A stretch of DNA of 64,000 nucleotides. Source: Phycisphaerae bacterium (GTDB lineage Bacteria > Planctomycetota > Phycisphaerae > SM23-33). Under the pieces are notes generated by a model that worked only from the letters and a program-made list of their open reading frames with translations, did no database searches and had not been told where the DNA came from. Position 1 is the first letter of the stretch. Every line of letters begins with the position of its first letter. The position numbers and the translations under genes were made by a program. Of this stretch, positions 4,547 to 48,452 are shown in pieces. Location: contig JAWLCQ010000002.1 of NCBI GenBank assembly GCA_041687095.1, positions 28,671 to 92,670 on the forward strand, in the 5' to 3' direction.

Positions 4547-5548
4547 ATGGAACCCACCAACGGACATCCCATGCGTCGGCCGCGGCGGTGGCGGAGGAGC
4601 GAGGCGATGCGCGAGATGCTCGCGGCCGTCCGCGTGCCGCGCCAGTGCCTCGTTGCCCCGCTGTTCGTTCGGGGGGGGCAGGGGGTGCAGCGGGAGATCC
4701 CGTCCATGCCCGGGCAGTACCAGCTCTCCCCCGACACCGCCGTCGCCACCGCCCGCCGCCTCGCCGACAAGGGCCTCGGGGCGGTGTTGCTGTTCGGCAT
4801 TCCCGAGCGCAAGGACGCCATCGGATCCTCCGCCTGGGACCCCGGGGAGTCCCTCCAGCGGGCGGTGGGGGAGATCAAACGCTCCGTCCCGGGCCTGCTG
4901 GTGGTCACCGACGTGTGCCTCTGCGAGTACACCGACCACGGGCACTGCGGGACGCTGTGCACCCGCCCCGACGGATCGCCCGACGTGGACAACGACGCCA
5001 CGCTCGAATCCCTCGCCCGCACCGCCCTGTCGCACGCGGAGGCCGGGGCGGACGTCGTCGCCCCCTCGGCGATGATGGACGGGCAGGTCGCCGCCATCCG
5101 CTCCGCCCTCGATGCGGCCGACCACGCGGACACCGCCATCCTCGCCTATGCCGTCAAGTTCGCCTCCGCCCTGTACGGGCCCTTCCGCGACGCCGCCGAG
5201 AGCCCCCCGCAGTTCGGCGACCGGCGGACGTACCAGATGGACTACCGCACCCCCCGCCAGGCCGGGATCGAGGCCGCCCTCGACGCCGACGAGGGCGCGG
5301 ATATCCTCATGGTCAAGCCCGCCCTCGCCTACCTCGACGTCCTCGCCGACCTCCGCCGCCGCACCGACCTCCCCCTCGCCGCCTACGCCGTCAGCGGGGA
5401 GTACGCCATGCTCAAAGCCGCCGCCGCGAACGGATGGCTCGACGAGAAGGCGGCCGTGCTGGAGACCACCACCGCCCTCCGCCGCGCCGGGGCGGACCTG
5501 ATCATCACCTACTACAGCGAACTGCTCACCGACTGGCTGCCAACCTGA
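4547..5548 (+). CDS. hemB: Porphobilinogen synthase (ALA dehydratase)
   Basis: RPRRWRR, DVCLCEYTDHGHCG (Zn site), VAPSAMMDGQV, YGPFRDAA, GADILMVKPA, AYAVSGEYAM. Confidence 0.97.
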   Translation: MEPTNGHPMRRPRRWRRSEAMREMLAAVRVPRQCLVAPLFVRGGQGVQREIPSMPGQYQLSPDTAVATARRLADKGLGAVLLFGIPERKDAIGSSAWDPGESLQRAVGEIKRSVPGLLVVTDVCLCEYTDHGHCGTLCTRPDGSPDVDNDATLESLARTALSHAEAGADVVAPSAMMDGQVAAIRSALDAADHADTAILAYAVKFASALYGPFRDAAESPPQFGDRRTYQMDYRTPRQAGIEAALDADEGADILMVKPALAYLDVLADLRRRTDLPLAAYAVSGEYAMLKAAAANGWLDEKAAVLETTTALRRAGADLIITYYSELLTDWLPT

Positions 5549-7254
5549 ACATCTTCGTCCTGGGACTTTCGCACCACACCGCTCCCGTGGCGGTGCGGCA
5601 GCGGTTCGCGCTGTCCGACGACCGCGCCCGCACCCTTCTCCGCGCCATCCACCACGACACCGTCCTGGAGGAGGCCCTCGTCCTGCAGACGTGCAACCGC
5701 ACGGAGATCTACTTCGTCGCCCCCGACCCCGCCCCGGCCGTGCCGTATCTGCTGGGCCTCGTCGCCCGCACGACGGGCGCGGAATCGCCCCTCGATGCGG
5801 CCCTCCTGTACCGCCATGATCGCGAGGAGGCGGTGGGGCACCTGTTCCGCGTGGCGGGGGGGCTGGACTCGCAGGTCGTGGGCGAACCGCAGATCCTCGC
5901 TCAGCTCAAGACGGCCTACCGGGTGGCGTTGGAGGAGCGGACGGCCCGGTTCTTCCTCAACAAGCTCCTGCACGCCGCCTTCCGCGCCGGGAAGCGGGTG
6001 CGGACGGAGACGGAACTCAGCGGGGCCCTCAGCGTCCCCCGCGCCGCCGCCGCCCTCGTCCGCGAAACGCTGGGCGACCCGGCCTCGCGGTCGGTCCTGC
6101 TGATCGGTGCGGGCCCAACCGCCGAACTCACCGCCCGAGCCCTGCTGCAGGCGGGCGTGCGGAAGCTCACCGTCGCCAACCGCTCCCTCCCCAACGCCCG
6201 CCTGCTGGCCGATCGGCTCCTGAACGAACCCCGCCCGGGGGAGAGCGCGACCGTCAGCCAGACGAGCGGCGCCCAACCCTTCTCCCCCGGGGGAGCGGAG
6301 CGTGAACCCTTCTCCCCTGGGGGAGAAGATGTCGCGCAGCGACAGATGAGGGGGCGCTCGGAGGACGAGCAGGCGCCGGACACGGGCGACGGCTCTTCCT
6401 CTGGTGCGAGCCCACAGGCTTCCGCACCGCCGCCGACCTCCGGGCGCCCCCTCACCGCCCTCGCTGCGCTCGGGCACCTCTCCCCGAGGGGAGAGGGGTC
6501 AGATCCCCTGCCGGACCTCGACTCCTGCCCCGCGCTGTCCCGCCACCGCCGCGCCTCTCATCGCTGCGAAGCGGAGACCGGGGAGGGTATCACGGGATCC
6601 GCCAACGAAATCCCCGCCCCAATCCGCAATCCGCAATCCGCCATCCGCCATTCCGTTCTCGCCGTTTCCCTCGACAGCCTTCCCGACGCCCTGCGGTCCG
6701 TGGATGCGGTGCTGTCCGCGACGGGGTCGCCGACGGAGGTGCTGCGCTATGACGCTCTCGCCGCTCCGCTCCGCCGCCGCCGCCGTCCGCTGCTGCTCGT
6801 GGACCTCGCCGTCCCCCGTGACATCGACCCCCGCCTCGCCAAGCTGCCCTGCGTCACGCTCCGCACGCTCGACGACCTGAACGCCATCCTCGCCGACCAC
6901 CGCCGGCGACAGGACCGCCACCTCCCCCTCGCCGAGGCCATCCTCGCCGAGGAAACCGGCGACTTCGCCCGCTGGATCGACACGCTCCAGGTCACCCCGG
7001 CCATCAAGCTCCTCAAACGCCGCTTCGCCGAACTGCACCAGCGCGAGACCCGCCGCTACGCCTCCCGCTTCGTCGCCAACCATGCCTCCGAGGAACTCGA
7101 ACGCTTCGCCCGCTCCCTCGCCAACAAGATCCTCCACCACCCCATCGCCTACCTCCGCGACACCGCCCGCACCGGGACGCTCAGCGATCAGCTCTCCGCC
7201 GTCGAGACCGTGCGGCGGATGTTCGACCTCGACGAGCCGGAGCCCGACGCATGA
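5545..7254 (+). CDS. hemA: Glutamyl-tRNA reductase with a large repeat-derived in-frame insertion; probable CTG start
   Basis: NIFVLGLSHHTAPVAVR, catalytic TCNRTEIY, GLDSQVVGEPQILAQLK, LIGAG, DLAVPRDIDP. About 569 aa versus about 420-440 typical; extra sequence at roughly 6225-6660. Confidence 0.92.
   Translation: MNIFVLGLSHHTAPVAVRQRFALSDDRARTLLRAIHHDTVLEEALVLQTCNRTEIYFVAPDPAPAVPYLLGLVARTTGAESPLDAALLYRHDREEAVGHLFRVAGGLDSQVVGEPQILAQLKTAYRVALEERTARFFLNKLLHAAFRAGKRVRTETELSGALSVPRAAAALVRETLGDPASRSVLLIGAGPTAELTARALLQAGVRKLTVANRSLPNARLLADRLLNEPRPGESATVSQTSGAQPFSPGGAEREPFSPGGEDVAQRQMRGRSEDEQAPDTGDGSSSGASPQASAPPPTSGRPLTALAALGHLSPRGEGSDPLPDLDSCPALSRHRRASHRCEAETGEGITGSANEIPAPIRNPQSAIRHSVLAVSLDSLPDALRSVDAVLSATGSPTEVLRYDALAAPLRRRRRPLLLVDLAVPRDIDPRLAKLPCVTLRTLDDLNAILADHRRRQDRHLPLAEAILAEETGDFARWIDTLQVTPAIKLLKRRFAELHQRETRRYASRFVANHASEELERFARSLANKILHHPIAYLRDTARTGTLSDQLSAVETVRRMFDLDEPEPDA
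6277..6503 (+). repeat. Multi-hairpin palindromic element (CCTTCTCCCC..GGGGGAG family), copy 1, in-frame in hemA
   Basis: Terminal hairpins CCCTTCTCCCCTGGGGGAGAAG and CTCTCCCCGAGGGGAGAG; inner IR GATGAGGGGGCG...CGCCCCCTCACC; clear homolog at 12793-13063. Confidence 0.85.
6621..6655 (+). repeat. Heptamer tandem repeat (AATCCGC)n inside hemA
   Basis: AATCCGC x3, CATCCGC, CATTCCG; encodes IRNPQSAIRHS. Confidence 0.85.
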
Positions 7255-8555
7255 GCCCGCTGGTCATCGGCACGCGGGGATCCGAACTCGCCCTCTGGCA
7301 GGCGGGGTTCGTCCGCGACGCGCTGCAGCGGGCGCACCCCGGGCTCGACGTCCGCCTGCAGATCATCGCCACCCGCGGGGACATCGCCCTGGAGCAGCCC
7401 ACCCATGCTTCGCTCGACAAGGGCCTGTTCACCACGGAGATCCAGGACGCCCTGCGCGGGGGCGAGATCGACCTGGCGGTCCACTCCCACAAGGACCTGC
7501 CCACCCGCAGCCCCGAGGGGCTGGTGGTGGCGGCGATCCCGCAGCGCGAGGATCCTTCCGATGCGCTCGTGCTCCGGGAGGGACTTGCAGGGGGCGATTT
7601 CGGATTTGGGATTTGGGATTTCGGATCTGCGGAGGTGACGGATTCGAATCCCCGGGCGAGTTCGGGACCGGATGGAGAGGGGACGCAACAGACGCCAAAT
7701 GGCAAGCCCCTGCAGGATCGCGAGCAAGGTCCGACACGCGCTTGCGATCTGGCGTCTGTTCCTCCGAACAAGAGCAACCCCCATCGCGCAGCGGAACCTT
7801 CGGAAGGAGCGCCTGTTCAAATCCGAAATCCGAAATCCGAAATCCGAGATTTCCCCCTTGTTCCCGAGGGGGCAGAGATCCTCACGGGTTCGCTCCGTCG
7901 CGGGGCGCAGTTGCTACACCTGCGCCCGGACCTGAAGGTCCTGCCCGTCCGGGGCAACGTCCCGACGCGCCTGCGGAAGCTCGACGAGGGCGGGGCGTGC
8001 GGGATCGTCCTCGCCCTGGCGGGGCTGCGGAGGCTGGGCCTGGAGCACCGCGTCTCGCTCCGCCTGGACCCGGGGCATTTCGTCCCCGCCTGCGGGCAGG
8101 GGGCGCTGGCCATCGAGGTCCGCCGCGACGACGCTCGGGTACGGGACCTGATCGAAGCCATCGATGACCGATCCTCCCACCTCGCCGTCCTCTGCGAGCG
8201 GTCCTTCCTCGCCCTCCTCCACGCCGGCTGCCGCGCCCCCGTCGGTGCCTACGCGCGGTTCGGGAACGCCTCCCCGTGCGCCTCCCCCAAGCCCACCGAC
8301 TGCGTCGGTGGGATCCCGTCGACCCCGGTCAATCCCCCGGACACGCGAAATGCTTCCCTCACCGTCACGGGCGTCATCGCGTCGCCCGATGGTTCGCGAC
8401 TCTTCCGCGACACGCTCACCGCTCCTGTCACCGGCCGCGACTCCGCCATCGCCCTGGGCGAGTCCCTCGCGGAACGCCTGCTGTCGGCCGGTGCGGGGGC
8501 CGTGCTCGACGAGGCGGGCGTGCGGGCCCCGCGGGGCAACGGGGGCGGATCGTGA
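7251..8555 (+). CDS. hemC: Hydroxymethylbilane synthase with two in-frame insertions
   Basis: IGTRGSELALWQA, KGLFTTEIQDAL, DLAVHSHKDLP, REDPSDAL, SLRR, RGNVPTRLRKL, cofactor Cys in AGCRAPVG. 434 aa versus about 310 typical. Confidence 0.95.
   Translation: MSPLVIGTRGSELALWQAGFVRDALQRAHPGLDVRLQIIATRGDIALEQPTHASLDKGLFTTEIQDALRGGEIDLAVHSHKDLPTRSPEGLVVAAIPQREDPSDALVLREGLAGGDFGFGIWDFGSAEVTDSNPRASSGPDGEGTQQTPNGKPLQDREQGPTRACDLASVPPNKSNPHRAAEPSEGAPVQIRNPKSEIRDFPLVPEGAEILTGSLRRGAQLLHLRPDLKVLPVRGNVPTRLRKLDEGGACGIVLALAGLRRLGLEHRVSLRLDPGHFVPACGQGALAIEVRRDDARVRDLIEAIDDRSSHLAVLCERSFLALLHAGCRAPVGAYARFGNASPCASPKPTDCVGGIPSTPVNPPDTRNASLTVTGVIASPDGSRLFRDTLTAPVTGRDSAIALGESLAERLLSAGAGAVLDEAGVRAPRGNGGGS
7596..7846. 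repeat. About 250-bp element with inverted heptamer-array arms, in-frame in hemC
   Basis: Left arm GATTTCG GATTTGG GATTTGG GATTTCG GAT (7596-7626); right arm AAATCCG x4 (7819-7846). Confidence 0.85.
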
Positions 8556-10195
8556 GCGTTGGGCGCGTCTATCTCGTCGGTGCGGGCCCGGGGGATCCGG
8601 GCCTGTTCACCCTTCGCGGGGCGCAGTTGCTCGCCCTCGCCGACGCCGTCGTCTACGATCGCCTCGTCCCGCCCTCGCTGCTCGATCTCTGCCGCCCCGA
8701 CGCCCAGCGGATCTACGTCGGGAAGCGCCCCGACGCGCACACGCTCCCGCAGGAGCGGATCAACGCCCTGCTCGTCGAACTCGCCCGCGAGGGCAAATGC
8801 GTCGTGCGGCTCAAGGGGGGGGATCCGTTCGTGTTCGGGCGCGGAGGGGAGGAGGCCGCCGAACTCGCCGATGCGGGCATCCCCTTCGAGGTCGTCCCCG
8901 GGGTGACGGCCGGCATCGCGGCGCCGGCGTATGCGGGCATCCCCGTTACTGATCGCCGCTGCGCGGGGGCTTTCGCCCTCATCACCGGGCACGAGACGCC
9001 CGATCGCGAGGGCTCGCTGCTGGACTGGGGCGCCTTGGCGAAGTTCCCGGGGACGCTGGCGTTCTACATGGGCGTGGGGCGCCTGGCGGAGATCTGCGAG
9101 CGGCTGATCACGGCGGGCAGGTCGCCCGACACGCCCGCGGGCGTCATTGAGCAGGGCACGACGGTGCGGCAGCGGACGGTGACGGGCACGTTGGTCACGC
9201 TGCCCGACGCGGTGCGGGAGGCAAGCATTGCCCCCCCCGCCATGATCGTCGTCGGGGAGGTCGTCGGCCTGCGCGAGCACCTGGCGTGGTTCGAGAAGCG
9301 CCCGCTCTTCGGGCAGTGCATCGCCGTCACCCGCGCCCGCCAGCAGGCCGGGCCCATGATCGACCAGCTCCGCGAGTTGGGGGCGGAGGTTCTCGAAACC
9401 CCCGCCATCCGCATCGCACCGCCCGAAGACCCCGCCCCCCTCGCCGCCGCCGTGCACACGGCGTGCGAGGGCGGGTTCGACTGGATCGTCTTCACCAGCG
9501 TCAACGCGGTGGATGCGTTCTTCACAGCGCTGGCGGAGCCGGATGCAAGCGAAGCCCGCGAGCCCTGTAAGGCCATCTCCCCGACGCAGTCGGGGGGCGT
9601 TGCAGACGCGCGGGATCGCGAACCCCGGTGCGGGGCGAGATCGACTCCGCCCCTCGACGCCCGCGCCCTGCACAGGGTCCGCCTGTGCGCAATCGGGCCC
9701 GTCACCGCTGATCGCCTGCGGGCGTACGGCCTGCGGGCCGATGCGGTCCCCGCCCGCTTCGTCTCCACGGAGATCGCCCCGCTGCTGGTGACGACGGGGG
9801 AGCTACGGAACCAGCGGGTGCTGCTCCCGCGGAGCGATCTCGCCCCGCCCGACCTCGCCCGCGCCCTCACCGCCCGCGGGGCCCGTGTCACCGATGTCAT
9901 CGCCTACCGCACCCTCTCCGATCCGGGTGCGTGCGCCCCGCTCGTCGAGCGCCTCGCGGAGGGGACGGTGGACTGGATCACCTTCACCAGTTCGTCCACC
10001 GTCACCCACCTCCTCGCCGCCGTCGGACCCGACGCCGTCGCCCGCTCCCGCGCCCGCCTCGCCAGCATCGGGCCCACCACCTCCCAGACGCTCCGCGAAA
10101 ATGGCCTCTGCCCGGCCGTAGAGGCCGATCCGCATACCGGCGCGGCCCTCGTAACCGCTATACTGGAGGCACGAATGCGGGAGGCGACGGAGTGA
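8552..10195 (+). CDS. cobA-hemD: Bifunctional uroporphyrinogen-III C-methyltransferase / uroporphyrinogen-III synthase
   Basis: GTG start overlapping the hemC stop (GTGA). GRVYLVGAGPGDPGL, VRLKGGDPFVFGRGGEE, VVPGVTA; HemD half IAVTRA, DWIVFTSVNAV, WITFTSSSTV, ASIGPTTS. Confidence 0.94.
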   Translation: MSVGRVYLVGAGPGDPGLFTLRGAQLLALADAVVYDRLVPPSLLDLCRPDAQRIYVGKRPDAHTLPQERINALLVELAREGKCVVRLKGGDPFVFGRGGEEAAELADAGIPFEVVPGVTAGIAAPAYAGIPVTDRRCAGAFALITGHETPDREGSLLDWGALAKFPGTLAFYMGVGRLAEICERLITAGRSPDTPAGVIEQGTTVRQRTVTGTLVTLPDAVREASIAPPAMIVVGEVVGLREHLAWFEKRPLFGQCIAVTRARQQAGPMIDQLRELGAEVLETPAIRIAPPEDPAPLAAAVHTACEGGFDWIVFTSVNAVDAFFTALAEPDASEAREPCKAISPTQSGGVADARDREPRCGARSTPPLDARALHRVRLCAIGPVTADRLRAYGLRADAVPARFVSTEIAPLLVTTGELRNQRVLLPRSDLAPPDLARALTARGARVTDVIAYRTLSDPGACAPLVERLAEGTVDWITFTSSSTVTHLLAAVGPDAVARSRARLASIGPTTSQTLRENGLCPAVEADPHTGAALVTAILEARMREATE

Positions 10196-11475
10196 TCGGA
10201 ATCTCAAAACTCTACTGCGGCAGCATCGAGCCCTCCGACGCCCTGCGCTATGGGAGCGCAGAGGAGGTCCGCGGCGGCGCTTCCAACGGACGGACTGCGC
10301 ATCCCACCGACGCCGTCGGTGGGCTTGCCGCCGATCCCCACGGACGGTCGGAGCACGGGGCTCGCCACCATCGTCCCCCGCGCGAGCGCAAGCCCGTTGT
10401 CGTCTGGAACTGCACCCCCCGCTGCAACCTCCGCTGCGTACACTGCTACTCCCACAGCGACCCGGCCCGCACGGCGGCCGAACTGTCCACCACCCAGGCC
10501 GAGGCCATGTTCTCCGACCTCGCCGCCTTCGGGGCCCCCGTGATCCTCTTCTCCGGCGGCGAGCCGCTCCTCCGCCCCGACCTGCTGCCCCTCATCGAGC
10601 GGGCGTCGCGGCTGGGCTTGCGGACGGTCGTGTCCACCAACGGAACGCTGCTGACCCCCGACCTCGCCGCCCGCCTCCGCGACGCGGGCATTGCCTACGT
10701 GGGCGTTTCGCTCGACGGGGTGGGGGCGGCCAATGACCGCTTCCGCGGCGTGGACGGAGCGTTCGAGCGGGCGCTTGCGGGCATCCGCCACTGCCGATCC
10801 GCCGGGGTCCGCACCGGCCTGCGCTTCACCGTCACCCGCCGCAACCTCCCCGAGGTGCCCGGTGTGCTGGACCTGCTCGCCCGCGAGGGCATTCCCCGCG
10901 CGTGCTTCTACCACCTGGTCTATGCGGGGCGGGGTTCGGACCTCGTCGGTGAGGACCTCGACGGGGCTCAGACGCGCGCCCTGCTGGATCTGCTCATCGA
11001 TCGCACGGCCGCCATGCACCGCAGCGGGCACCCCGTCGAGGTCCTCACCGTCAACAACGCCGCCGACGGGCCCTACGTCTACCTCCGCATGCTCCGCGAG
11101 GGGCACGCGCGGGCGGGGGAGGCGCTGTCGCTGCTGCGGCGAAGCGGGGGGGATGCGACGGGCAGCGGGATCGCGTGCGTGTCGTGGGACGGGACGGTCC
11201 ACCCCAGCCAGTTCTGGCGGGGCGTGTCGCTGGGCAACGTCACCGAGCGCCCGCTGTCGCAGATCTGGACGGACCCGTCCATCGAGCTGTTGGCGAAGCT
11301 GCGGGACAAGCCCGCCCACGTGCACGGGCGCTGCGAGCGCTGCCGCTTCCTGCCCGTGTGCGGCGGCAACTCCCGCATCCGCGCCGAGGCGGTGACGGGC
11401 GACCTGTGGGCGTGCGACCCGGCATGCTACCTCACCGACGACGAGATCGCCGGCGACCTCCCGGCGGATCGCTAG
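10192..11475 (+). CDS. ahbC: Radical SAM/SPASM protein, Fe-coproporphyrin III synthase AhbC/NirJ1 type
   Basis: GTG start; N-terminus IGISKLYCGSIEPSDALRYG characteristic of AhbC; KPVVVWNCTPRCNLRCVHCY (CxxxCxxC), SGGEPLLR, C-terminal GRCERCRFLPVCGGNSRIRAEAVTGDLWACDPACY. Confidence 0.9.
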   Translation: MIGISKLYCGSIEPSDALRYGSAEEVRGGASNGRTAHPTDAVGGLAADPHGRSEHGARHHRPPRERKPVVVWNCTPRCNLRCVHCYSHSDPARTAAELSTTQAEAMFSDLAAFGAPVILFSGGEPLLRPDLLPLIERASRLGLRTVVSTNGTLLTPDLAARLRDAGIAYVGVSLDGVGAANDRFRGVDGAFERALAGIRHCRSAGVRTGLRFTVTRRNLPEVPGVLDLLAREGIPRACFYHLVYAGRGSDLVGEDLDGAQTRALLDLLIDRTAAMHRSGHPVEVLTVNNAADGPYVYLRMLREGHARAGEALSLLRRSGGDATGSGIACVSWDGTVHPSQFWRGVSLGNVTERPLSQIWTDPSIELLAKLRDKPAHVHGRCERCRFLPVCGGNSRIRAEAVTGDLWACDPACYLTDDEIAGDLPADR

Positions 11476-11480
11476 CGCCT

Positions 11481-14258
11481 GTAAGCGAGCAATCGAAAAT
11501 CGACAATCGAAACTCGAAAACCTCCCCCCCTCGCCTGGTCGCCTGGGAACTCACGCAGGCCTGCCCCCTGCACTGCCGCCACTGCCGCGCCGCCGCGTCG
11601 GCGGCGCCCGGTCCGGGCGAACTCACCACCGCCGAGGGCTTCGCCCTGCTGGAGAACCTCGCCTCCCTCACCGTCGGGGCCCCGAGCATGGCCGAGACGG
11701 CCATGCGACACACGGGCGAGACGCCCGTGCCACGAACAGCGCCGCCACACACGGGCGAGACCCCCGTGCCACAAGCGCACGCCGCCCAACCGCCCCCGCT
11801 GATCCTCATCCTCACCGGCGGCGAACCGCTCCTCCGCCCCGACGTCTACGAACTCGCCGCCCGCGGAACCCAACTGGGCCTGCGGGTGGTGCTCGCGACG
11901 TGCGGGTCGCTGCTGGACGACGCGACGGTCTCGCGGCTGTTGGCGGCGGGCGTGCGGCGGGTGTCGATCTCGCTTGACGGAGCGTCGGCCGAGACGCACG
12001 ATGCCTTCCGCGGGGTCCCCGGGGCGTTCGACGGGGCGATGCGGGGCATCGCGGCCGCCCGGCGCGGCGGGCTGGAGTTCCAGGTCAACACCACCGTCAC
12101 CCGCGACAACCGCGACGAACTCCCCGCCATCCTCGACCTCGCCCGGCGGCTGGGCGCGGTCACGTTCAACCCGTTCCTGCTCGTTCCCACCGGCCGGGGG
12201 CGGGAGATGGCCGACCGCGAGCTGTCCCCCACGGACTACGAGCGCACGCTCGCGTGGCTGTCCGACCGCGAGGACGACGCGGGCCTCCCCATCCGTGTCA
12301 CGTGCGCTCCGCACTACCAGCGGATCCGTGCGCGTCGCAGGCAGGGGAAAAGGGGACAGGCACCTGCGGGGCCAACAACGCCCCCCTCCGGAGCCAGTCC
12401 CCTTTTTCCCGACGCAGTCCGGGACCGTTCGGAAGGCGCGTGCGGTGGATACCCGCACGCGCGAGGCGGACCGCACGCGGTGTCGGGCGGGTGCCTGGGC
12501 GGGAAGTCCTTTGCGTTCGTTTCGCACGACGGGAAGGTCCGCATCTGCGGGTTCCTGGACGTGGACGCGGGGGACCTGCGGGAGGTGGGGATGGACTTTG
12601 GTTCCATCTGGGAGACCGCCGAACTCTTCCGCCGCGTCCGCGACGTGAGCGGGTACGGTGGGAAGTGCGGGGCGTGCGAGTACGTCCGCACCTGCGGCGG
12701 TTGCCGCGCGCGGGCGTACGCGATGACCGGCGATTACCTCGCGGAGGAGCCCTTCTGCCTCTACCGCCCGGCCGCAATGCGGACCTCCGAGCGCTTCTCC
12801 CCCGGGGGAGACGAGGTCGCGCAGCGCGCGCCCCAGCTCTGCTCCCCCGGGGAGGGTGAACCCTTCTCCCCTGGGGGAGAAGATGTCCCGAGCGAAGTCG
12901 AGGGACAGATGAGGGGGCGCCTGGAGGACCAGCTGGCGCTGGATACGGGCAACGCCCCTTCCACTGGTGCGGGCCGGGGGGCTTGCGGGCCGTCTCAGAC
13001 CTCCGGGCGCCCCCTCACCCCCCTCGCTGCGCTCGGGGACCTCTCCCCGGGGGGAGAGGGGTTAGAACCGCTCTCCTCTAAGGGAGAGGGGTCAGAACCG
13101 TTCCCCTCTAAGGGCGAGGGGGCAGAACCGTCCCCGTCTACGGGAGAGGGGTTGGACGCCGCCGATCGCGCCATGCTGACCGCTGCCCAGGAGGGCCTGG
13201 CGATCGTCGAGCGCCCGTTCGAGGAACTCGCTCGTCGCGTGGGCCTCGCCGAGTCGCAGGTGCTGGATCGCCTGCGATCGCTGCAGGGCCGGGGGCTCGT
13301 CCGCCGGATCGGGGCCGTCTTCGACTCCCGCCGCCTCGGGTACGCCACCGCCCTCGTCGCCGCCCGCGTCCCGACCGAACGCCTCGATCGCGTCGCCGCC
13401 GTCGTCAGTGAGCACCCGGGCGTGACGCACAACTACGCCCGCGACCACGCGTACCGCCTCTGGTTCACCCTCGCCGCCCCCTCGCCCGAGGCGCTGCGGG
13501 AGACCCTGGGCGACCTCCGCGAACGAACCGGGGTCGCCGAGATGTACCTCCTGCCTGCCACGCGAACCTACAAGATCCGCGTCGCCCTGGCACCGACGGG
13601 GAACGGTGAGGGCGATCCACGGCAGTCGAGCGAGGAGCCAGCGGATGCAAGGGATGGGGGATCGGAGCGGGCGGCAGAGCGGAAGACGCCTCAACACCGA
13701 AGCGATCCTCACCACGCCCGGTGTCCGGTAACGCCCTCCGACTGCGTCGAGAGGGCCGCGCGGACGCAGCCCGTGACCGAGAGCGACAAGCGCCTCGTCC
13801 GTGCGATGGAGGAACTCCCGCTCATCGAGCGTCCCTTCGCGGAGGCCGCGTCGCGGGGGGGGCTGTCCGAGGCGGAGGTGCTGGAGCGCCTGCGGGCGTG
13901 GCAGCGGTCGGGCGTGCTCCGCCGCCTCGCCGCCCTCGTCGCCCATCGCCGCATCGGGTATTCCGCCAACGGCATGGCCGTGCTGCGCGTGCCCCCCGCC
14001 CACCGCGACGCCGCCGGGGCCCTCCTCGCCGCCCGCCCCCAGGTGACGCACTGCTTCGCCCGCCCCTCGCCCCCGGGCATGGACTTCAACCTCTACGCCA
14101 TGTTCCACGGGGCGGCGCCGGAGGAGGTCCGCGCAGCCGTGGCGGACGCCATCGCGGACATCGCCCGCGTCGTGGGCGAACCGGTCCCGCACGAACTGCT
14201 GTTCTCGACCCGCGAGTTCAAGAAGACGTCCATGCGCTACTTCACCGAGCCCCCGTAG
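11481..14258 (+). CDS. ahbD-ahbA-ahbB: Single ORF encoding AhbD (radical SAM heme synthase) plus AhbA and AhbB (siroheme decarboxylase, Lrp/AsnC-like halves); start uncertain
   Basis: PRLVAWELTQACPLHCRHC, TGGEPLLR, VTCAPHY, CLGGKSFAFVSHDGKVRICGF, CGACEYVRTCGGCRARAY..EEPFCLY. No stop follows before LDAADRAML...ERPFEELARRVG...RRIGAVFDSRRLG...HNYARDH (AhbA) and SDKRLV...ERPFAEA...RRLAALVAHRRIGYSANGM...LFSTREFKKTSMRYF (AhbB). The nearest in-frame ATG is 11424, inside ahbC. Confidence 0.85.
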   Translation, partial: VSEQSKIDNRNSKTSPPRLVAWELTQACPLHCRHCRAAASAAPGPGELTTAEGFALLENLASLTVGAPSMAETAMRHTGETPVPRTAPPHTGETPVPQAHAAQPPPLILILTGGEPLLRPDVYELAARGTQLGLRVVLATCGSLLDDATVSRLLAAGVRRVSISLDGASAETHDAFRGVPGAFDGAMRGIAAARRGGLEFQVNTTVTRDNRDELPAILDLARRLGAVTFNPFLLVPTGRGREMADRELSPTDYERTLAWLSDREDDAGLPIRVTCAPHYQRIRARRRQGKRGQAPAGPTTPPSGASPLFPDAVRDRSEGACGGYPHARGGPHAVSGGCLGGKSFAFVSHDGKVRICGFLDVDAGDLREVGMDFGSIWETAELFRRVRDVSGYGGKCGACEYVRTCGGCRARAYAMTGDYLAEEPFCLYRPAAMRTSERFSPGGDEVAQRAPQLCSPGEGEPFSPGGEDVPSEVEGQMRGRLEDQLALDTGNAPSTGAGRGACGPSQTSGRPLTPLAALGDLSPGGEGLEPLSSKGEGSEPFPSKGEGAEPSPSTGEGLDAADRAMLTAAQEGLAIVERPFEELARRVGLAESQVLDRLRSLQGRGLVRRIGAVFDSRRLGYATALVAARVPTERLDRVAAVVSEHPGVTHNYARDHAYRLWFTLAAPSPEALRETLGDLRERTGVAEMYLLPATRTYKIRVALAPTGNGEGDPRQSSEEPADARDGGSERAAERKTPQHRSDPHHARCPVTPSDCVERAARTQPVTESDKRLVRAMEELPLIERPFAEAASRGGLSEAEVLERLRAWQRSGVLRRLAALVAHRRIGYSANGMAVLRVPPAHRDAAGALLAARPQVTHCFARPSPPGMDFNLYAMFHGAAPEEVRAAVADAIADIARVVGEPVPHELLFSTREFKKTSMRYFTEPP
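11491..11518 (+). repeat. Heptamer tandem repeat (AATCGA[A/C])n at the 5' end of ahbD
   Basis: AATCGAA AATCGAC AATCGAA ACTCGAA. Confidence 0.8.
11686..11772 (+). repeat. Three REP-like hairpins in-frame in ahbD
   Basis: GCATGGCCGAGACGGCCATGC (11686-11706), CACACGGGCGAGACGCCCGTGCCAC (11709-11733), CACACGGGCGAGACCCCCGTGCCAC (11748-11772). Confidence 0.85.
12344..12410. repeat. Inverted-repeat element in-frame in ahbD
   Basis: GGGAAAAGGGGACAGGCACC ... GGAGCCAGTCCCCTTTTTCCC; encodes GKRGQAP...GASPLFP. Confidence 0.8.
12793..13063 (+). repeat. Same palindromic element, copy 2, in the AhbD-AhbA linker
   Basis: Shares GAACCCTTCTCCCCTGGGGGAGAAGATGTC, GACAGATGAGGGGGCGC, GACCTCCGGGCGCCCCCTCACC.CCCTCGCTGCGCTCGGG.ACCTCTCCCCG with the hemA copy. 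Confidence 0.85.
13064..13153 (+). repeat. 3 x 30-bp tandem hairpin repeat
   Basis: AGAACCGCTCTCCTCTAAGGGAGAGGGGTC / AGAACCGTTCCCCTCTAAGGGCGAGGGGGC / AGAACCGTCCCCGTCTACGGGAGAGGGGTT. Confidence 0.9.
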
Positions 14259-14347
14259 CGTTCAGGGTTGAACGGAGCGAAGGCCAGCGGAACGGGACTG
14301 GGCGCGGCGGATTGAAGGACGCTGGGAGCCCCGTTCCTCGGCGGGCG

Positions 14348-14509
14348 CTACTGCAGGTCAGCCTTCTTGACCTTCGTGGACTTCGCGAGCACGTCCACGA
14401 GTTCGGACTTCTTCATGGACTTCTTCGCCCCTGCGATGTTGTTCTTGTCGGCGAGGGAGAGAAGGACGTCCTTGGACTTCTGTTCGAGCATCTCCGCTTT
14501 GGTCGGCAT
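14348..14509 (-). CDS. 53-aa Lys-rich small protein, Rho_N/HeH-like
   Basis: Below the track cutoff. MPTKAEMLEQKSKDVLLSLADKNNIAGAKKSMKKSELVDVLAKSTKVKKADLQ*. Strong SD AAAGGAG 8 nt upstream; the L..LA....I.G...MKK.ELV..L pattern resembles Rho termination factor N-terminal domains. Confidence 0.7.
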   Translation of the reverse strand: MPTKAEMLEQKSKDVLLSLADKNNIAGAKKSMKKSELVDVLAKSTKVKKADLQ

Positions 14510-14705
14510 GGGTGGCTCCTTTCGTCACCGTGGCGTGTGTGGAGGACCCGCTCCGTGCGGGCCTCGAAGGATGCACTTGCGTCACTCTATGGGGCTTGTC
14601 TGCGGAATTCAGGGAAAACGCCGAGGGATGCTGCATCTGGTGTAGGAATCGTGCGCGGATCCCACCGATGGCACGGGGGGGGGGGCGCCGAAGGGCGCAT
14701 CAGCG

Positions 14706-15383
14706 TCAGTGTGCGCCAAGGGCGGCGCCGGCGGCGTCGAGGAGGAACTTGCCGCCGAACCCCACCATCGCCAGCCCGCACACCGCCAGAAGGACTGTCT
14801 GCACGCGGCCCTTGAGCAGCCGCGCTCCGTAGTGGCTGGACACGCTGAGCACCTCCAGCCAGAGCAGGTCCAGCGTCCAGTGCAGGGCGGCGAAGATCAC
14901 GAACGCCGCCAGTCCCAGCCGCGCCGCCTCCGTCACCAGCGCCAGCCCGGCCGTCACCCACCACACGAGGAAGTACGGGTTCGCCGCCGTCAGCGCCACG
15001 CCCGTCACGAGAGGGTGGCGGCGGAGGGGGGGAGGGTTCCCCGGCGCGGCGGCGGGGGTTGCCCGTCGCAGGCCCCACAGCATCGACGCGCCCAGGAACA
15101 GCAGCACCAGCCCCCCCACGAGCCCGATCCCCACCCGCACGTCCGTCCGCCGCAGCACCTCCTGCACGCCCAGGTCCATCGCCCCCGCGACCCCGCGGAC
15201 GGTGAGCAGGATGAGGACCATGAGGGGCAGTTCAATGAGGGCGTGCCCGACGGCGAGGTGCAGCCCGGCGTGACGGCGGCGGAGGCCGTGCTCGACCGTG
15301 GCGGCCGTCATCGGCCCCGGGGCCAGCACGCCCGACAGCGAGATCCCAACCGCCTGGATGAGGAACGCGAGCGTAGGGGACAT
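14706..15383 (-). CDS. LysE/RhtB family translocator
   Basis: ISLSGVLAPGPMTAAT, GHALIELP, LTAANPYFLVWW; hydrophobic segments. Confidence 0.88.
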   Translation of the reverse strand: MSPTLAFLIQAVGISLSGVLAPGPMTAATVEHGLRRRHAGLHLAVGHALIELPLMVLILLTVRGVAGAMDLGVQEVLRRTDVRVGIGLVGGLVLLFLGASMLWGLRRATPAAAPGNPPPLRRHPLVTGVALTAANPYFLVWWVTAGLALVTEAARLGLAAFVIFAALHWTLDLLWLEVLSVSSHYGARLLKGRVQTVLLAVCGLAMVGFGGKFLLDAAGAALGAH

Positions 15384-15606
15384 GGCGGGATTGTACCGGA
15401 GGACGGGGATCGGAATGACGGAAAGTCTGGAATCCACTGGCCTTTGGACGCCATAATCGGGGACATTCAAGAGCGTCTGGAACCGCAGTACCTCGCCACA
15501 CGTTTGGAGGAATCCAGGCGCGGACCGGACCGGGACCGTGGGTGATTTCGCCGTCGCCCGCGGTTGGTGCTGCGCGCACCGAAGGCCACCACAGCAGGGA
15601 CCCCCA

Positions 15607-18600
15607 GTGTCCGAACGCTTCGACACCATCTGCCGCAATGAGCGCCTCGTCGAGGCGGGCAGACGTGTTGCGCGCGGTGAGGGCGTGGTGCTCACGGGGC
15701 TGTGGGGGTCGGCGGGGGCGATGGTGGCGGCGGCGATGGGGCGCATCACGAAGCGCACCATGCTGCTCGTCGTCCCCCACCTCGACGACGCCGACGAAGC
15801 CGCCGACGACATCGAGGTCCTCACGGGCAGGGCGGCGGAGCAGTTCCCGGCGTGGGAGGTGGACCTGGGGACCGAGCACATCAACGACGAGGTCGCCGGG
15901 GAGCGCGTCCGCATCTGCACGCTGCTGAGCGGACCGCCCGAGCCGCGCTCGGAGGGCACGAGCGTCCTGGTGGCCCCGGTGATGGCGCTGCTGCAGCCGG
16001 TCCCGTCTCTCCAGGCCCTGGAGGAGGGCCGGCTGACACTTCATCGCGGGATGGAACTGGGCATCGAGGCGCTGACGGGGTGGCTGGTCGACGCGGGTTA
16101 CGAGCATGTCGAGCAGGTGGACCAGCAGGGAGAATTCGCCCAGCGCGGGGGGATCGTGGACGTGTTCCCCCCCGGGGTGTCGGCCGCGGTGCGGGTGGAG
16201 TTCTTCGGGGACGAGATCGACAGCGTCCGCCGCTTCGACCTCGACACGCAGCGCTCCAGCGAGGAACTCGAGCGGTACGACCTCACGGGCGTCCTGGTGG
16301 GGCGGGAGCACGGGAGCGGGCGGACGACGATGTTCCTGGACTACCTGCCCCCCGACACGCTGGTCTGCCTCCAGCACCCGCAGGAGACGATGGACCTCGC
16401 CCGCACCCTCGCCGCCCGCATCCGCGACGTCTCGTCGGCCCTGCCCGCCCGCGAACTGCTCGAACCCGACGAGGTCTTCCTTCGCCTGGCGAGCTTCGCG
16501 CAGGTGGAGCTGCACACCTTCCCGCCCGCCGACGCCCGCGACGCGGTGAACCTGGGCGTGCGCTCCATCGAGCGCCTCAGCGTCAACACCCGCGAGGCCC
16601 TCGACGAACTCCAGCAACTCGCCCACGCCGCCGCCATCACCGTCTTCTGCGAAAACCCCGCCGAACGCCACCGCTTCCACGAGGTCCTCGAAACCTCCCA
16701 CCCCAAGCTCGCCTCCCGCGTCGTCGAGGAGATCGGCCACCTGCACCAGGGCTTCTACTGGCCGACGGAGCAGTGGGCGGCCGTCGGGTCCCACGAGATC
16801 CTCCACCGCTACGCCAAGGTCCGCCGCATCCGCCGCGTCCGCACGGGCCGGCCCATCGAGAGCATGCTGGACCTGCAGGCGTCGGATTACGTGGTGCACG
16901 TGGCGCACGGGATCGCGAAGTTCGAGGGCCTCCGCAAGCTCGACCGCGAGGGCAAGAGCGAGGAGTACCTCACCCTCCAATTCGCCGACAGCGCCCGCCT
17001 GCACGTGCCCGTCTCGCAGATCCACCTGGTGCAGAAGTACGTGGGCTCCCGGGGCAAGCGGCCGACGCTGAGCAAGCTGGGGGGCGCGATGTGGTCCCGG
17101 CAGAAGGAGCGCGTCGCCTCCGCCGTCCACGACCTCGCCGCCGAGATGCTCCGTATCCAGGCGATGCGCTGGGCGAGCCCCGGAACCGCCTACCCCCGCG
17201 CCACCGAGTGGTCCCGGCAGTTCGAGGACGAGTTCCTCTACACCGAGACCGAGGACCAGCTCACCTCCATGGAGCAGATCACCGAGGACCTCGCGACGAT
17301 GCGGCCCATGGACCGCCTGCTGTGCGGGGACGTGGGGTACGGCAAGACCGAGCTGGCGATGCGGGCGGCGTTTCGGGTGGTGGAGGGGGGCAAGCAGGTG
17401 GCGGTGCTCGTGCCCACCACCGTCCTCGCCGCCCAGCACCTCCGCACCTTCCGCGAACGCTTCGCCGAGTACCCCTTCGCCATCGACGTGCTCGCCCGCT
17501 TCCGCACCGACCGCGAGCAGGCGGGCATCATCGAGCGCGCCCGCGAGGGCGGGGTGGACATCCTCATCGGCACGCACCGCCTCCTGAGCAAGGATGTGCA
17601 CTTCAAGGACCTGGGGCTGGTGGTCATCGACGAGGAGCAGCGGTTCGGGGTCGAGCACAAGGAGCGGTTCAAACGCATGCGGGCCGAGGTCGAGGTCCTG
17701 ACCATGACCGCCACCCCCATCCCCCGGACGCTGCACATGGCCCTGCTGGGCCTGCGGGACATCAGCGCCCTGACCACGCCCCCCCTCGACCGCCGCGCCA
17801 TCCACACCGAGGTGACCCACCTGGACGAGGACCTCCTCCGCGCCATCCTCCTCCGCGAACTCAACCGCGAGGGGCAGGCGTTCTTCGTCCACAACCGCGT
17901 GATGGACATCCAGTCCCTCGCCGACCGCCTCCGCGCCCTCGTGCCCGAGGCCCGCATCGACGTCGGCCATGGCCAGATGGCCGAGGGCGAACTCGAGGAC
18001 GTCATGCTCCGCTTCCTCCAGCGCCAGACCGACGTGCTGGTGTGCACCACGATCATCGAGAGCGGCCTGGACATCCCGACGGCCAACACCATGATCGTCC
18101 ACAACGCCGACCGCTTCGGCCTGTCGGAGCTGCACCAACTCCGCGGGCGCGTCGGGCGCAGCGATCGCCGGGCCTTCTGCTACCTCCTGCTGCCCGAGGA
18201 CCGCTCCATGAACGCCACCGCCGCCAAGCGCCTCAAGGCCATCGAGGAGTTCTCCGACCTGGGGGCGGGGTTCCAGATCGCCATGCGCGACCTGGAGATC
18301 CGCGGGGCGGGCAACATCCTGGGGGCCGAGCAGTCCGGGCACATCGCGACGGTGGGCTACGAACTGTACTGCCAGCTCCTGGAACGCAGCGTCCACGAAC
18401 TCCGCGGGGAAACGCCGCCGATGCGGATCGACGTGCACGCCGAACTCGGCATTAGCAGCTACATCCCCCGCACCTATATCCCCTCCGATCGCCAGCGGAT
18501 GGAGATCTACCGCCGCATGACCCAGTGCACCACCAGCGAGGACCTCGAACAGCTCGCCGCCGACCTCGACGACGCCTACGGGACGCTCCCGAGCGAGGTC

Positions 18601-31055: not shown

Positions 31056-31425
31056 GGGTGTCACCCGCAAGCGGCGCTGTCGGCTGCTTGCGGGTGACAA
31101 CCCGCGGACGGTTACGAGGTCTCGTAACCGTTCCTGCGGTGCCATCGCAAAGCGTCTTCTCTTCGTGGCGTGGGCACAAGCGCCCATGCGTCCCACGGAC
31201 CTCTTGCGCGTGGCGGAAGACCCAGAGCAGGGGGAGCCGCCCCTTGTGATGCACCGGCGGGATGCCCCTCGACCTGCCGATGGCCGTGACCGTTCTTCAC
31301 AACCCGCACCCGAATCCGGCGCTCCCCCCCGCTGCGTCACCCCAATAAAACGAGCAGGGATGCAGCGGACGCACGGAATGGAGGTCGTCCATCTTGATCC
31401 CGTGCATCCCCTGCATCCCTGCTCG
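31056..31425. repeat. Intergenic mosaic of at least four palindromic elements
   Basis: 14-bp stem 31059-31099; 11-bp stem 31108-31131; GCCAC-tagged hairpin 31165-31189 (minus orientation); 75-bp GGATGCAG-armed IR 31351-31425. Confidence 0.8.
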
Positions 31426-35356: not shown

Positions 35357-35478
35357 TCGGGGATGAACGCGGATGACACCGAGTCCCCATTGCGCGACAC
35401 CGCGCGGCAGCGGGCAATGCCCACGGGGCGCTGTCCAGCCCCGTGGGACGGGGTCGGGCGCCCGAGGGCGTTGATGGT

Positions 35479-39379: not shown

Positions 39380-39418
39380 TTCCCAACGCCCCCGGACGCC
39401 GTCCGGGGGCGTTGGGAA
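39380..39418. repeat. Perfect 18-bp-stem hairpin of the GAC-NNN-GTC family
   Basis: TTCCCAACGCCCCCGGAC GCC GTCCGGGGGCGTTGGGAA, between same-strand genes; may also act as a terminator. Confidence 0.8.
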
Positions 39419-41792: not shown

Positions 41793-41906
41793 CTCTCGGT
41801 CCTTTTTAACGGCCCGCACTGTGAGGGGGCGCATATTCGACAGATCCGGAAGGAAGCAGGGATACAGGGGATGCAGGGGATCGGCAAGGGGGTACTGCGG
41901 CGAGGG

Positions 41907-43440: not shown

Positions 43441-43558
43441 AGGTGAGAGGTTAGAGGTGAGAGGTTAGAGTGCAGGCGCTGCGGCGCCGTCGGCGGCTTG
43501 GGCGCACAGTCACGCTTCACGGCTTGCACTCTCACCTCTAACCTCTCACCTCTAACCT
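43441..43558. repeat. Intergenic element with inverted heptamer-array arms
   Basis: AGGTGAGAGGTTAGAGGTGAGAGGTTAGAG ... CTCTCACCTCTAACCTCTCACCTCTAACCT. Confidence 0.85.
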
Positions 43559-45129: not shown

Positions 45130-45340
45130 GGTGTGGGCTCCTGGTCTCGATGTCGAGGGGAGCGTAGCGGGTGCGCAGAGCGGGTGCAAGGTGTGGGGTG
45201 GAAAACGGGCGAACTCGCGAGCCGGTCGTATTCCAACGCCGTCCCACGGGACGGACAGCGTCCCGTGGGCATTGGGAGCGAGTTGATTTTCCCGCCGGGC
45301 GATGCAGAATGGCTTGGGCCCACCGGCGGCGGGAGCGCAC

Positions 45341-48264: not shown

Positions 48265-48353
48265 GGGCGCAGACCTCTCCTGTATCGATCCCTTCCCTCT
48301 ATCGGTTTCATTCGCCGCCCGCTTGAGGAAAGTTCGGAGACTGCTCCGCAGTC

Positions 48354-48441
48354 CACCGCAGAGATCGCGGAGAACGCAGAGGGGATCGGAGTTCAGCGGA
48401 TACCCTGTCCTTCCTCTGCGGTCTCTGCGTTCTCCGCGGTG
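48354..48441. repeat. Intergenic IR element with 9-mer (CGCAGAG/CGCGGAG) arms
   Basis: CACCGCAGAGATCGCGGAGAACGCAGAGG ... CCTCTGCGGTCTCTGCGTTCTCCGCGGTG. Confidence 0.85.
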
Positions 48442-48452
48442 CAGATCGATTC

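Follow-up and report, generated by a model that had tools for sequence, protein, structure and literature searches.

How can consecutive genes of one biosynthetic pathway carry large amounts of repeat DNA within their reading frames and still appear to encode functional enzymes? This question is raised by the heme operon of a Phycisphaerae bacterium on contig JAWLCQ010000002.1, located in a stretch of 64,000 nucleotides (nt) that we refer to as the window and that has a GC content of approximately 70%. The operon lies on the + strand between 4.5 and 14.3 kb and comprises hemB, hemA, hemC, cobA-hemD, ahbC, and a single open reading frame (ORF) encoding ahbD-ahbA-ahbB. A first-pass annotation made from the nucleotide sequence had proposed that these heme genes contain in-frame repeats from at least five families and that the catalytic motifs remain. 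Alignment, Tandem Repeats Finder (TRF), BLAST, and fold prediction located inserts at 11 sites in the five consecutive genes from hemA onward, and both proposals were borne out. We consider it likely that the inserts are selfish repeats resembling repetitive extragenic palindromic (REP) sequences and short tandemly repeated repetitive (STRR) sequences, and that functional enzymes tolerate them at permissive sites, namely loops and linkers.

The nearest relatives of the heme proteins were drawn from 5.8 billion proteins, and our alignments took in the contigs L082 and L084 as well as a series of individual proteins. The closest relatives were 55-64% identical and came from Phycisphaerae-like metagenome bins, and a scan of genome contigs returned relatives at 57% identity or less. 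L082 and L084 have a gene order identical to that of the window's heme operon, and their heme genes show no internal drops in GC content at third codon positions (GC3). HemA has 567 amino acids (aa) in the window, compared with 477 and 475 aa in L082 and L084 and 448-483 aa in its closest relatives; HemC has 434 aa, compared with 321 aa in relatives and 301-376 aa in the 119 best homologues. The corresponding values are 547 and 510 aa for CobA-HemD, 427 and 400-414 aa for AhbC, and 928 and 692 aa (typically 664-720 aa) for the AhbD-A-B fusion, which is itself common among the relatives. The heme proteins of the window exceed their closest relatives by 13-236 aa, and the alignments put the excess at the 11 sites, with a net gain of approximately 490 aa (17% of the operon); the regions designated as inserts add up to 1,871 nt, or 21% of the operon. 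The ortholog alignment that had been suggested earlier as a check showed that the inserts are absent from relatives.

Two of the inserts are located in hemA (all features are on the + strand). A1 (6262-6516) is the first copy of a composite multi-hairpin element that we termed famA, and it was missing from 12 of 12 aligned relatives. It contains two CTTCTCCCC-N-GGGGAGAAG hairpins, a long GATGAGGGGGCGC...GCGCCCCCTCAC hairpin, and a CTCTCCCCGAGGGGAGAG hairpin, and its predicted DNA fold has a free energy of -88 kcal/mol (z -5.6). A2 (6620-6648) is a (CAATCCG)x4.1 heptamer array with a TRF score of 51, which encodes IRNPQSAIRH and sits within a clade-specific HemA loop (6517-6670). Throughout this clade, HemA has an additional loop of approximately 45 aa, marked by a conserved (R)CPAL.R motif, which is lacking in Acidithiobacillus HemA, and the window repeats in HemA entered this older loop (window 6517-6620). 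In hemC, C1 (7584-7868) is a palindrome of approximately 270 nt that adds approximately 90 aa (fold z -3.6; GC3 0.58); TRF resolved its arms into the inverted heptamer arrays (GATTTCG/GATTTGG)x4.4 and (AAATCCG)x4.1, and BLAST returned an inverted match between 7589-7626 and 7858-7821. We rejected a miniature inverted-repeat transposable element as the identity of this stretch: the arms are heptamer arrays, no direct repeat or target-site duplication was visible by eye at the borders, and no parent insertion sequence is known. C2 (8259-8336; 26 aa) consists of a hairpin of a second family, famB, with its flanks; the hairpin, CAAG-CCCACCGAC-TGC-GTCGGTGGG-AT at 8288-8314, has a perfect 9-bp stem.

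The domain encoding HemD in cobA-hemD contains D1 (9536-9655; approximately 36 aa), a nested palindrome around CCCCGAC-GCA-GTCGGGG with a fold z-score of -2.4, and ahbC contains E1 (10279-10362; 28 aa) near its N-terminus, with a famB hairpin in reverse orientation at 10301-10327. The remaining five inserts are located in the ahbD-ahbA-ahbB ORF, where F1 to F4 were placed by alignment against relatives. F0 (11491-11520), in the N-terminal tail of AhbD, is an (AATCGAA)x4.3 array detected by TRF that accounts for approximately 5 extra residues and is probably translated. F1 (11673-11790; approximately 35 aa; fold z -3.5) comprises three hairpins with AGA loops, GCATGGCCG-AGA-CGGCCATGC once and CACGGGCG-AGA-CGCCCGTG twice. 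F2 (12336-12489; approximately 39 aa; fold z -2.6) occupies the loop between APHYQRI and GC.GGK.FAF and contains a hairpin with a 14-bp stem, GGGGAAAAGGGGAC...GTCCCCTTTTTCCC, and another with a 10-bp stem. The linker between AhbD and AhbA contains F3 (12789-13160; roughly 100-110 extra aa), which comprises the second copy of famA and a 30-nt unit repeated 3.4 times. F4 (13590-13776; approximately 35 extra aa; GC3 0.68), in the linker between AhbA and AhbB, contains the hairpin GCCCTCCGAC-TGC-GTCGAGAGGGC, and the z-score of its fold was not significant.

At least five kinds of repeats are represented in these inserts: famA, the famB hairpins tipped with GAC-NNN-GTC, AAATCCG/CAATCCG heptamer arrays, CACGGGCG hairpins with AGA loops, and the long GGGGAAAAGGGGAC hairpin. 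The 216-nt composite famA is repeated at 82% identity (E 1e-48) between 6297-6503 and 12851-13066, and the famB twins at 8288-8314 and 10301-10327 are inverted relative to each other and 96% identical. The inserts in cobA-hemD and ahbD and that in the AhbA/AhbB linker contain relatives of famB that share its GAC-[TGC/GCA/GCC]-GTC tip. The four heptamer arrays (6620-6648, 7596-7626, 7819-7847, and 11491-11520; TRF scores 46-58) are STRR-like in consisting of tandem 7-nt units, and the two hemC arrays form an inverted pair; the units are other than the cyanobacterial ones. Perfect hairpins with 9-10 bp stems numbered 12 in the window against 4.6 expected, and five of the 12 were in the operon; five of the nine inserts that we folded had DNA-fold z-scores between -2.4 and -5.6. 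A scan of the inserts against Rfam returned chance matches to microRNA hairpins only. The peptides encoded by the inserts consist to 64% of Pro, Gly, Ala, Ser, Arg, and Glu. The inserts had a GC3 of 0.72, compared with 0.915 for the cores of their host genes (0.92-0.97 in neighbouring genes), and the inserted DNA therefore has not taken on coding character.

The host genes were identified by profile searches. The hemA product (glutamyl-tRNA reductase; 5551-7254) matched TIGR01035 in two stretches with 340 bits (cut-off 210), and the hemC product (hydroxymethylbilane synthase; 7251-8555) matched TIGR00212 with 273 bits (cut-off 164). For cobA-hemD (uroporphyrinogen-III methyltransferase and synthase; 8552-10195), the scores were 304 bits for NF004790 (cut-off 198) and 193 bits for Pfam HEM4 (cut-off 27.5), and a TP_methylase domain was recognized in addition. 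The best match of ahbC (12,18-didecarboxysiroheme deacetylase, a radical S-adenosylmethionine [SAM] enzyme; 10192-11475) was TIGR04546 with 560 bits, which did not reach the curated cut-off of 650, and that of the AhbD part of the triple fusion (11472-14258; 928 aa in this frame) was TIGR04545 with 421 bits, below the curated cut-off of 500 and broken into three stretches by the inserts. The AhbA and AhbB parts scored 210 bits with NF040708 (cut-off 140) and 222 bits with NF040707 (cut-off 125), respectively. With AhbA, AhbB, AhbC, and AhbD all recognizable from their sequences, the cluster is an Ahb (siroheme-dependent) heme operon, and hemA, hemC, and cobA-hemD, which act upstream in tetrapyrrole synthesis, are intact. 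The catalytic motifs are kept: TCNRTE in HemA, the AGC cysteine of HemC, to which the dipyrromethane cofactor is bound, and two radical-SAM CxxxCxxC motifs (CNLRCVHC and CPLHCRHC). Neither stop codons nor frameshifts interrupt the five heme genes. From hemA onward, neighbouring genes overlap by 4 nt, which leaves no intergenic room in the operon. The first gene of the cluster, hemB (ALA dehydratase; 4571-5548), which was assigned from the gene order shared with the ALA dehydratase gene of L082, has a GC3 of 0.95 with no local drops and contains no insert.

The start of ahbD is uncertain; an in-frame ATG at 11424 (a 52-nt overlap with ahbC) and a GTG at 11412 (which also overlaps ahbC) are candidates. 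The public gene call for the fusion (P0241) has 830 aa, compared with 928 aa in frame. Its query coverage of 89% suggests that the 98 missing residues are N-terminal; if they are, the start of P0241 lies downstream of F1 and the radical-SAM CxxxCxxC motif is lost.

The reading frame and the predicted structures indicate where the inserts could persist. Downstream conserved blocks stay in frame past 11 of 11 inserts. Stop-free frames number two of six in famA copy 1 (A1) and one of six in the F3 region; because just one or two of the six are open, both famA copies are read in one and the same frame. We mapped the inserts onto alignment-based AlphaFold models of two proteins, HemC and HemA, a check that had also been suggested earlier. 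The HemC core was modelled with a predicted local distance difference test (pLDDT) score above 90, compared with approximately 33 for C1 (residues 118-196) and approximately 48-50 for C2 (residues 338-368, approximately), and both inserts lie between beta-strands. When compared with Escherichia coli porphobilinogen deaminase (PDB 1pda), the HemC model core gave a target-normalised TM-score of 0.93. The HemA core also scored above 90, and residues 233-356 scored below 50. According to these models, in which the inserts fall in low-pLDDT loops, the HemC and HemA inserts are disordered loops on intact folds.

The two famA copies provide a measure of constraint on the encoded peptide. They differ at codon positions 1, 2, and 3 by 15, 12, and 10 substitutions, respectively, which correspond to 25 non-synonymous and 3 synonymous codon changes; the hairpin stems are conserved and the loop region has diverged. 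RNA folds of the inserts were equally stable in sense and antisense orientation, and G-U pairs were not enriched on the sense strand (32 vs 50), so that the fold comparison gave no support for a role at the mRNA level. The first-pass annotation had viewed the operon as a site of domestication of coding repeats. The codon changes in famA, the disordered peptides, and the lack of asymmetry in the RNA folds speak against it: domestication is not supported, and the inserted peptide appears to evolve without purifying selection.

The concentration of inserts in the heme genes was evaluated by an unbiased scan for local GC3 drops over every gene in the window. The scan marked approximately 15 segments in the five heme genes and, after its flags were resolved, no genuine internal insert in the approximately 40 other genes of the window; the flags outside the heme genes corresponded to gene ends, a DUF4143 stretch, and two intergenic stretches upstream of mis-called starts. 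The low-GC3 stretch at 2199-2288 was rejected as an insert because it is part of the DUF4143 domain and contains no hairpin, and those at 15387-15641 and 45094-45336 were rejected as intergenic DNA upstream of the mis-called starts of genes encoding a LysE-family protein and a sulfatase. With eleven inserts over the 8.7 kb that encode the heme enzymes and none in 48 kb of other coding sequence, p is approximately 1e-9. This result agrees with the earlier description of the operon as a multi-family cluster, as far as the window is concerned, and with the earlier remark that mfd, bamA, and the lpx genes carry no inserts. The density of inserts in the heme operon, 1.3 per kb, equals the density of such elements in the intergenic DNA of the window.

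The occurrence of the same families between genes, which the first-pass annotation had also claimed, was confirmed for the design and for some motifs and not at the level of sequence copies. The intergenic elements at 31-48 kb are built like the inserts, from hairpins and inverted arrays of short units, and tip or stem motifs are common to the inserts and the intergenic sites at 39380-39418, 35422-35445, and 45245-45267. Within the window, no insert has an intergenic copy detectable by BLAST, and nothing notable was found at 54.4 kb, one of the positions named earlier. Insert-type design classes with differing sequences are seen at 39380-39418, 43441-43558, 48330-48450, 31397-31422, and 41859-41881; these five sites include a hairpin whose perfect stem has 18 bp and whose tip is of the GAC-GCC-GTC type, nonamer arrays, and two palindromes, one with heptamer arms (AGGTGAG/AGGTTAG) and one with nonamer arms. 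Elsewhere in the window, the longest ORFs at 43564-45513 and 14706-15959 overstate their genes: the sulfatase start is most likely at 45129, the LysE-family start is near 15335, and the stretch upstream of one of these corrected starts contains a hairpin at 45243-45269. The AAA_14/DUF4143 ATPase gene at 1344-2480, whose local GC content (0.65) and GC3 (0.86) are both below those of its neighbours, was probably acquired recently.

Copies of famB also occur in metagenomes. The family has the consensus AAG-CCCACCGAC-NNN-GTCGGTGGG-A(T), with CTT on the opposite strand, and the pattern CCCACCGAC-NNN-GTCGGTGGG was found on at least 120 metagenome contigs. Like both copies in the window, 79 of the 125 listed copies have GGC, GCC, GCA, or TGC loops and AAG/CTT flanks. 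Their coding or intergenic position was judged by a loose screen and inspection by eye, by which none of these 79 copies was convincingly intragenic; the few spanning ORFs were spurious 5' extensions. On the metagenome contigs, famB was thus seen almost exclusively between genes. Contigs carrying famB were not significantly enriched for heme genes: two of 120 had cobA-hemD, and in L167 the hairpins come after the stop codon. A tandem array of 7-9-mers was present within 80 nt of 14 of the 125 listed copies. At the famB loci (L085-L204), many of which come from the single sample series Ga0180429-Ga0180432, the hairpins often occur in tandem or inverted groups, or adjoin a second hairpin (AT-CCCCCGG...CCGGGGG-CTTTGG) and heptamer arrays such as CCACTAT/CCACTAA; this grouping recalls the clustered REP arrays of E. 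coli, the bacterial interspersed mosaic elements.

The same loops carry inserts in other lineages. In a 67% GC lineage represented by separate assemblies (L208 and L205; NCBI GCA_964625865.1 and an ENA scaffold), a single hairpin family with the arm GGGACAGTCACCCTTTTTCC and stems of approximately 30 bp is present in frame at five sites (L208 4099-11624): the HemA loop, the HemC loop that bears C1 in the window, the AhbD N-terminus, the F2 loop, and the AhbD/AhbA linker. The AhbA/AhbB linker has a hairpin related to this family. The family had no copy within 14 kb of sequence flanking the L208 operon at up to 4 mismatches, and the F2 arm GGGGAAAAGGGGAC of the window resembles it. A 58% GC lineage (L209) has two (CAATCCG)x4.6-4.7 arrays in frame in AhbDAB (10839-10870 and 11268-11300), which occupy the F2 loop and the AhbD/AhbA linker and have a unit identical to that in hemA of the window; its 22-kb locus contains six further heptamer or octamer arrays, all intergenic and with different units. 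The CAATCCG unit has no stop codon on either strand, and every frame of the array reads QSAIRNP because 7 is not a multiple of 3. These properties may explain the recurrence of the unit inside genes. We weighed whether the heptamer unit that is shared points to local spread and rejected this, given that CAATCCG is also in frame in the distant L209.

A third case, on the JGI metagenome contig Ga0494705_0004077 (L207), links the loops to a transposase. A 974-aa ORF at L207 4264-7188 (P0303) contains a REP-associated tyrosine transposase (RAYT) in frame within AhbD at the F2 loop; the transposase matched NF047646 with 87 bits (cut-off 80), carries NHVHVIV as its HUH motif together with a WQEEYYDH motif, and is flanked by the hairpins CGCGGGCA-ACT/AGA-TGCCCGCG. 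We know of no arrangement in which a transposase ORF lies in frame inside an enzyme gene. The F1 hairpins of the window (CACGGGCG-AGA-CGCCCGTG) are two compensatory stem changes apart from CGCGGGCA-AGA-TGCCCGCG of L207, whose AhbD/AhbA linker also contains a palindrome with arms of 30 nt. Altogether, the F2 loop has inserts in six other lineages, the L207 transposase included. Eight of 119 AhbDAB homologues among the matches listed were longer than 735 aa, and in the seven long homologues that we aligned the excess fell at the N-terminal, F2, F3, and F4 sites of the window. Judging from these sequences, other Planctomycetota have been struck independently at the same loops. Together with the two AlphaFold models, these independent insertions support the loop tolerance that the first-pass annotation had offered as one explanation.

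We consider the following course of events likely. A vertically inherited, functional siroheme-dependent heme operon in a 70% GC genome of the Planctomycetota (Phycisphaerae-like) would have fixed approximately 11 pieces of non-coding-type repeat DNA in five consecutive genes after its split from known relatives. The inserts that survived would be those that were a multiple of three, free of stops, and situated in a surface loop, inter-domain linker, or terminal tail, and so would be translated as disordered Pro/Gly/Ala/Ser-rich loops, with the fold and the catalytic residues intact. Such inserts would be passengers that passed the filter of selection rather than domesticated modules. The hairpins would be spread by a REP-associated tyrosine (Y1) transposase, and their density may result from permissive proteins (fusions, long linkers and loops) together with locally raised insertion or copying within the operon. 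The inserts are predicted to be translated and the enzymes to be active, and copies of the families were counted in the 64-kb window and on metagenome contigs. Several points weigh against this account. Tolerance alone does not account for zero inserts in approximately 40 neighbouring genes. The famB hairpins are without the terminal GTAG or CGTC tag of catalogued REP superfamilies, and tblastn of the window with the L207 transposase gave no match. For famA, a phmmer search with its peptide against 1.8 billion cluster representatives returned HemA itself only, and a pattern scan of metagenome DNA with its long hairpin gave 0 matches; because no copy was found outside the operon, famA may be a duplication within the operon and not a dispersed family. 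In L208, the menaquinone (futalosine-pathway) fusion gene next to the operon (11858-14986; 1,042 aa) has a related hairpin in a linker, and the effect is therefore not strictly heme-specific.

Permissive architecture clearly contributes to the density, as seen in the two fusion products, the long linkers, and the clade-specific HemA loop, and a locally raised spread or seeding in cis is plausible in addition. A stronger form of the latter would attribute the density to a raised insertion rate and not to tolerance, with a former transposase in or beside the operon, or with hairpins copied nearby by recombination or template switching. We regard this as unlikely, even though it would fit the hairpin-flanked transposase at the same AhbD loop in L207, the near identity of its hairpins to those of F1, the famA and famB twins, which are 6.5 kb and 2 kb apart and confined to the operon in the window, and the five copies of one family that in L208 are all in the heme operon and absent from its flanks. 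Against it, neither a transposase gene nor a remnant of one lies in the window, a single transposase is unlikely to have mobilised five or more unrelated families, this transposase type is not known to prefer acting in cis, and the recurrence of the heptamer unit in frame in a distant lineage can be explained by a filter for stop-free units. Carried further, the idea would make the Ahb operons of Planctomycetota a preferred and recurrent landing or breeding ground, in which an in-frame ahbD transposase seeds hairpins and heptamer arrays in cis and is later lost, leaving an operon that is one-fifth repeat DNA; we put this forward as a speculation that is somewhat less likely still.

It is improbable that the inserts are useful, either as structures in the mRNA or DNA by which a spacer-less 10-kb operon would adjust its stability, supercoiling, or translation rate or as linkers that aid enzyme assembly. 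The independent gain of inserts in the same operon by several lineages, the 4-nt gene overlaps, and the conservation of famA stems over the loop region would be expected under usefulness, but the strand symmetry of the RNA folds, the G-U counts, and the predicted disorder and unconstrained evolution of the peptides argue against it, the closest relatives do without inserts, and the lineages use unrelated sequences. Relaxed selection, which the first-pass annotation had also raised, would require the operon to be in early decay and redundant with another heme pathway or gene copy. We consider it highly improbable as the sole cause: the insert density does match that of the intergenic DNA and the AhbC and AhbD scores do fall under the curated NCBIfam cut-offs, but retention of the frame at 11 of 11 sites would have a probability of approximately 1e-6 to 1e-7 without selection (assuming a chance of 1/3-1/4 each), the genes have intact catalytic motifs and neither stops nor frameshifts, folds are predicted with high confidence, and the core GC3 of 0.915 is near that of neighbouring genes. 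The source appears to be a metagenome-type contig, and yet assembly artefacts are hardly credible as an explanation; they would not all be multiples of three placed exactly in loops and linkers, the same phenomenon occurs in four independent assemblies from other studies, and repeats usually break short-read assemblies rather than create insertions. Tolerance of selfish repeats, plausibly with some local spread, remains the account that we prefer.

In-frame selfish palindromes are textbook knowledge for Rickettsia and have been regarded as a curiosity of reduced genomes. The phylum of the present host is assumed to be largely free-living; here they occur in a GC-rich genome, and at least four other planctomycete lineages have been struck independently. 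The inserts provide a natural map of insertion-tolerant sites in HemA, HemC, HemD, AhbC, and AhbD/A/B that may be of use in protein engineering, and the operon offers a testable case for separating insertion bias from tolerance in the biology of REPs and their transposases. They also matter for annotation, as they mislead gene callers and push two family scores under curated cut-offs. If the operon is indeed a breeding ground in cis, it would be the first evidence of a locally biased spread of REPs and of a transposase hosted in the frame of an essential enzyme.

Among known systems, the Rickettsia palindromic elements (RPEs) are in-frame selfish palindromes in genes (Ogata et al. 2000, 2002; reviewed in PMC10969869). 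As with RPEs, palindromic families of selfish DNA, several per genome, are found in frame in metabolic genes, apparently translated and compatible with the fold, and are absent from the orthologues of these conserved genes. RPEs measure approximately 150 bp, code for one conserved peptide each, and are dispersed among unrelated genes of a small, AT-rich intracellular genome; compared by description, the inserts reported here are 30-370 nt long, include heptamer arrays, show no conservation of the peptide, and are packed, approximately eleven of them, into one operon of a large GC-rich genome. No conserved peptide was dispersed over unrelated genes, and the genes that received inserts are all part of a single pathway. 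Intragenic REPs of the GTAG and CGTC superfamilies (Di Nocera et al. 2013, PMC3733652), which have also been found in Opitutus terrae of the same superphylum, are mostly extragenic with occasional ORF inserts of 20-30 aa (43-82 aa for clusters); some genes have two inserts, DNA repair genes are over-represented, and location in flexible loops was proposed as the reason for neutrality. They resemble the present case in that one functional gene class is favoured, DNA repair there and heme synthesis here. In contrast, famB has AAG/CTT flanks and no terminal tag, unrelated families are mixed, and the density is 11 sites in five adjacent genes compared with one or two inserts per gene.

REPs and REP doublets forming hairpins (REPINs) are associated with RAYT transposases (Bertels and Rainey 2011, PMC3116915). 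The likeness to this system lies in families of 20-40 nt hairpins with conserved arms and variable loops that occur singly, in tandem, or as inverted pairs, and in the hairpin-flanked RAYT in the ahbD of L207. However, REPINs are extragenic by definition, and the window contains no transposase gene. A further likeness is to STRRs, heptamer arrays of cyanobacteria in which small dispersed repeats are reportedly nested, as Elhai and co-workers are said to have described in 2008. Like STRRs, the arrays in the heme genes consist of tandem 7-nt units in approximately 4-5 copies, often as inverted pairs that make long hairpins, and are physically linked to small GC-rich hairpins, as seen in the 14 of 125 listed famB copies near arrays. 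Unlike STRRs, they belong to another phylum, have the units AAATCCG, CAATCCG, and AATCGAA, and include four arrays that are part of coding sequence; owing to the 7-nt period, one and the same 7-aa peptide, such as QSAIRNP, is read in each of the three frames. The kind of insertion is thus already known from RPEs and intragenic REPs; what sets the present case apart is its density, the presence of five or more families side by side, heptamer arrays among them, the repeated insertion into the same loops across lineages, and the link to a transposase embedded in ahbD.

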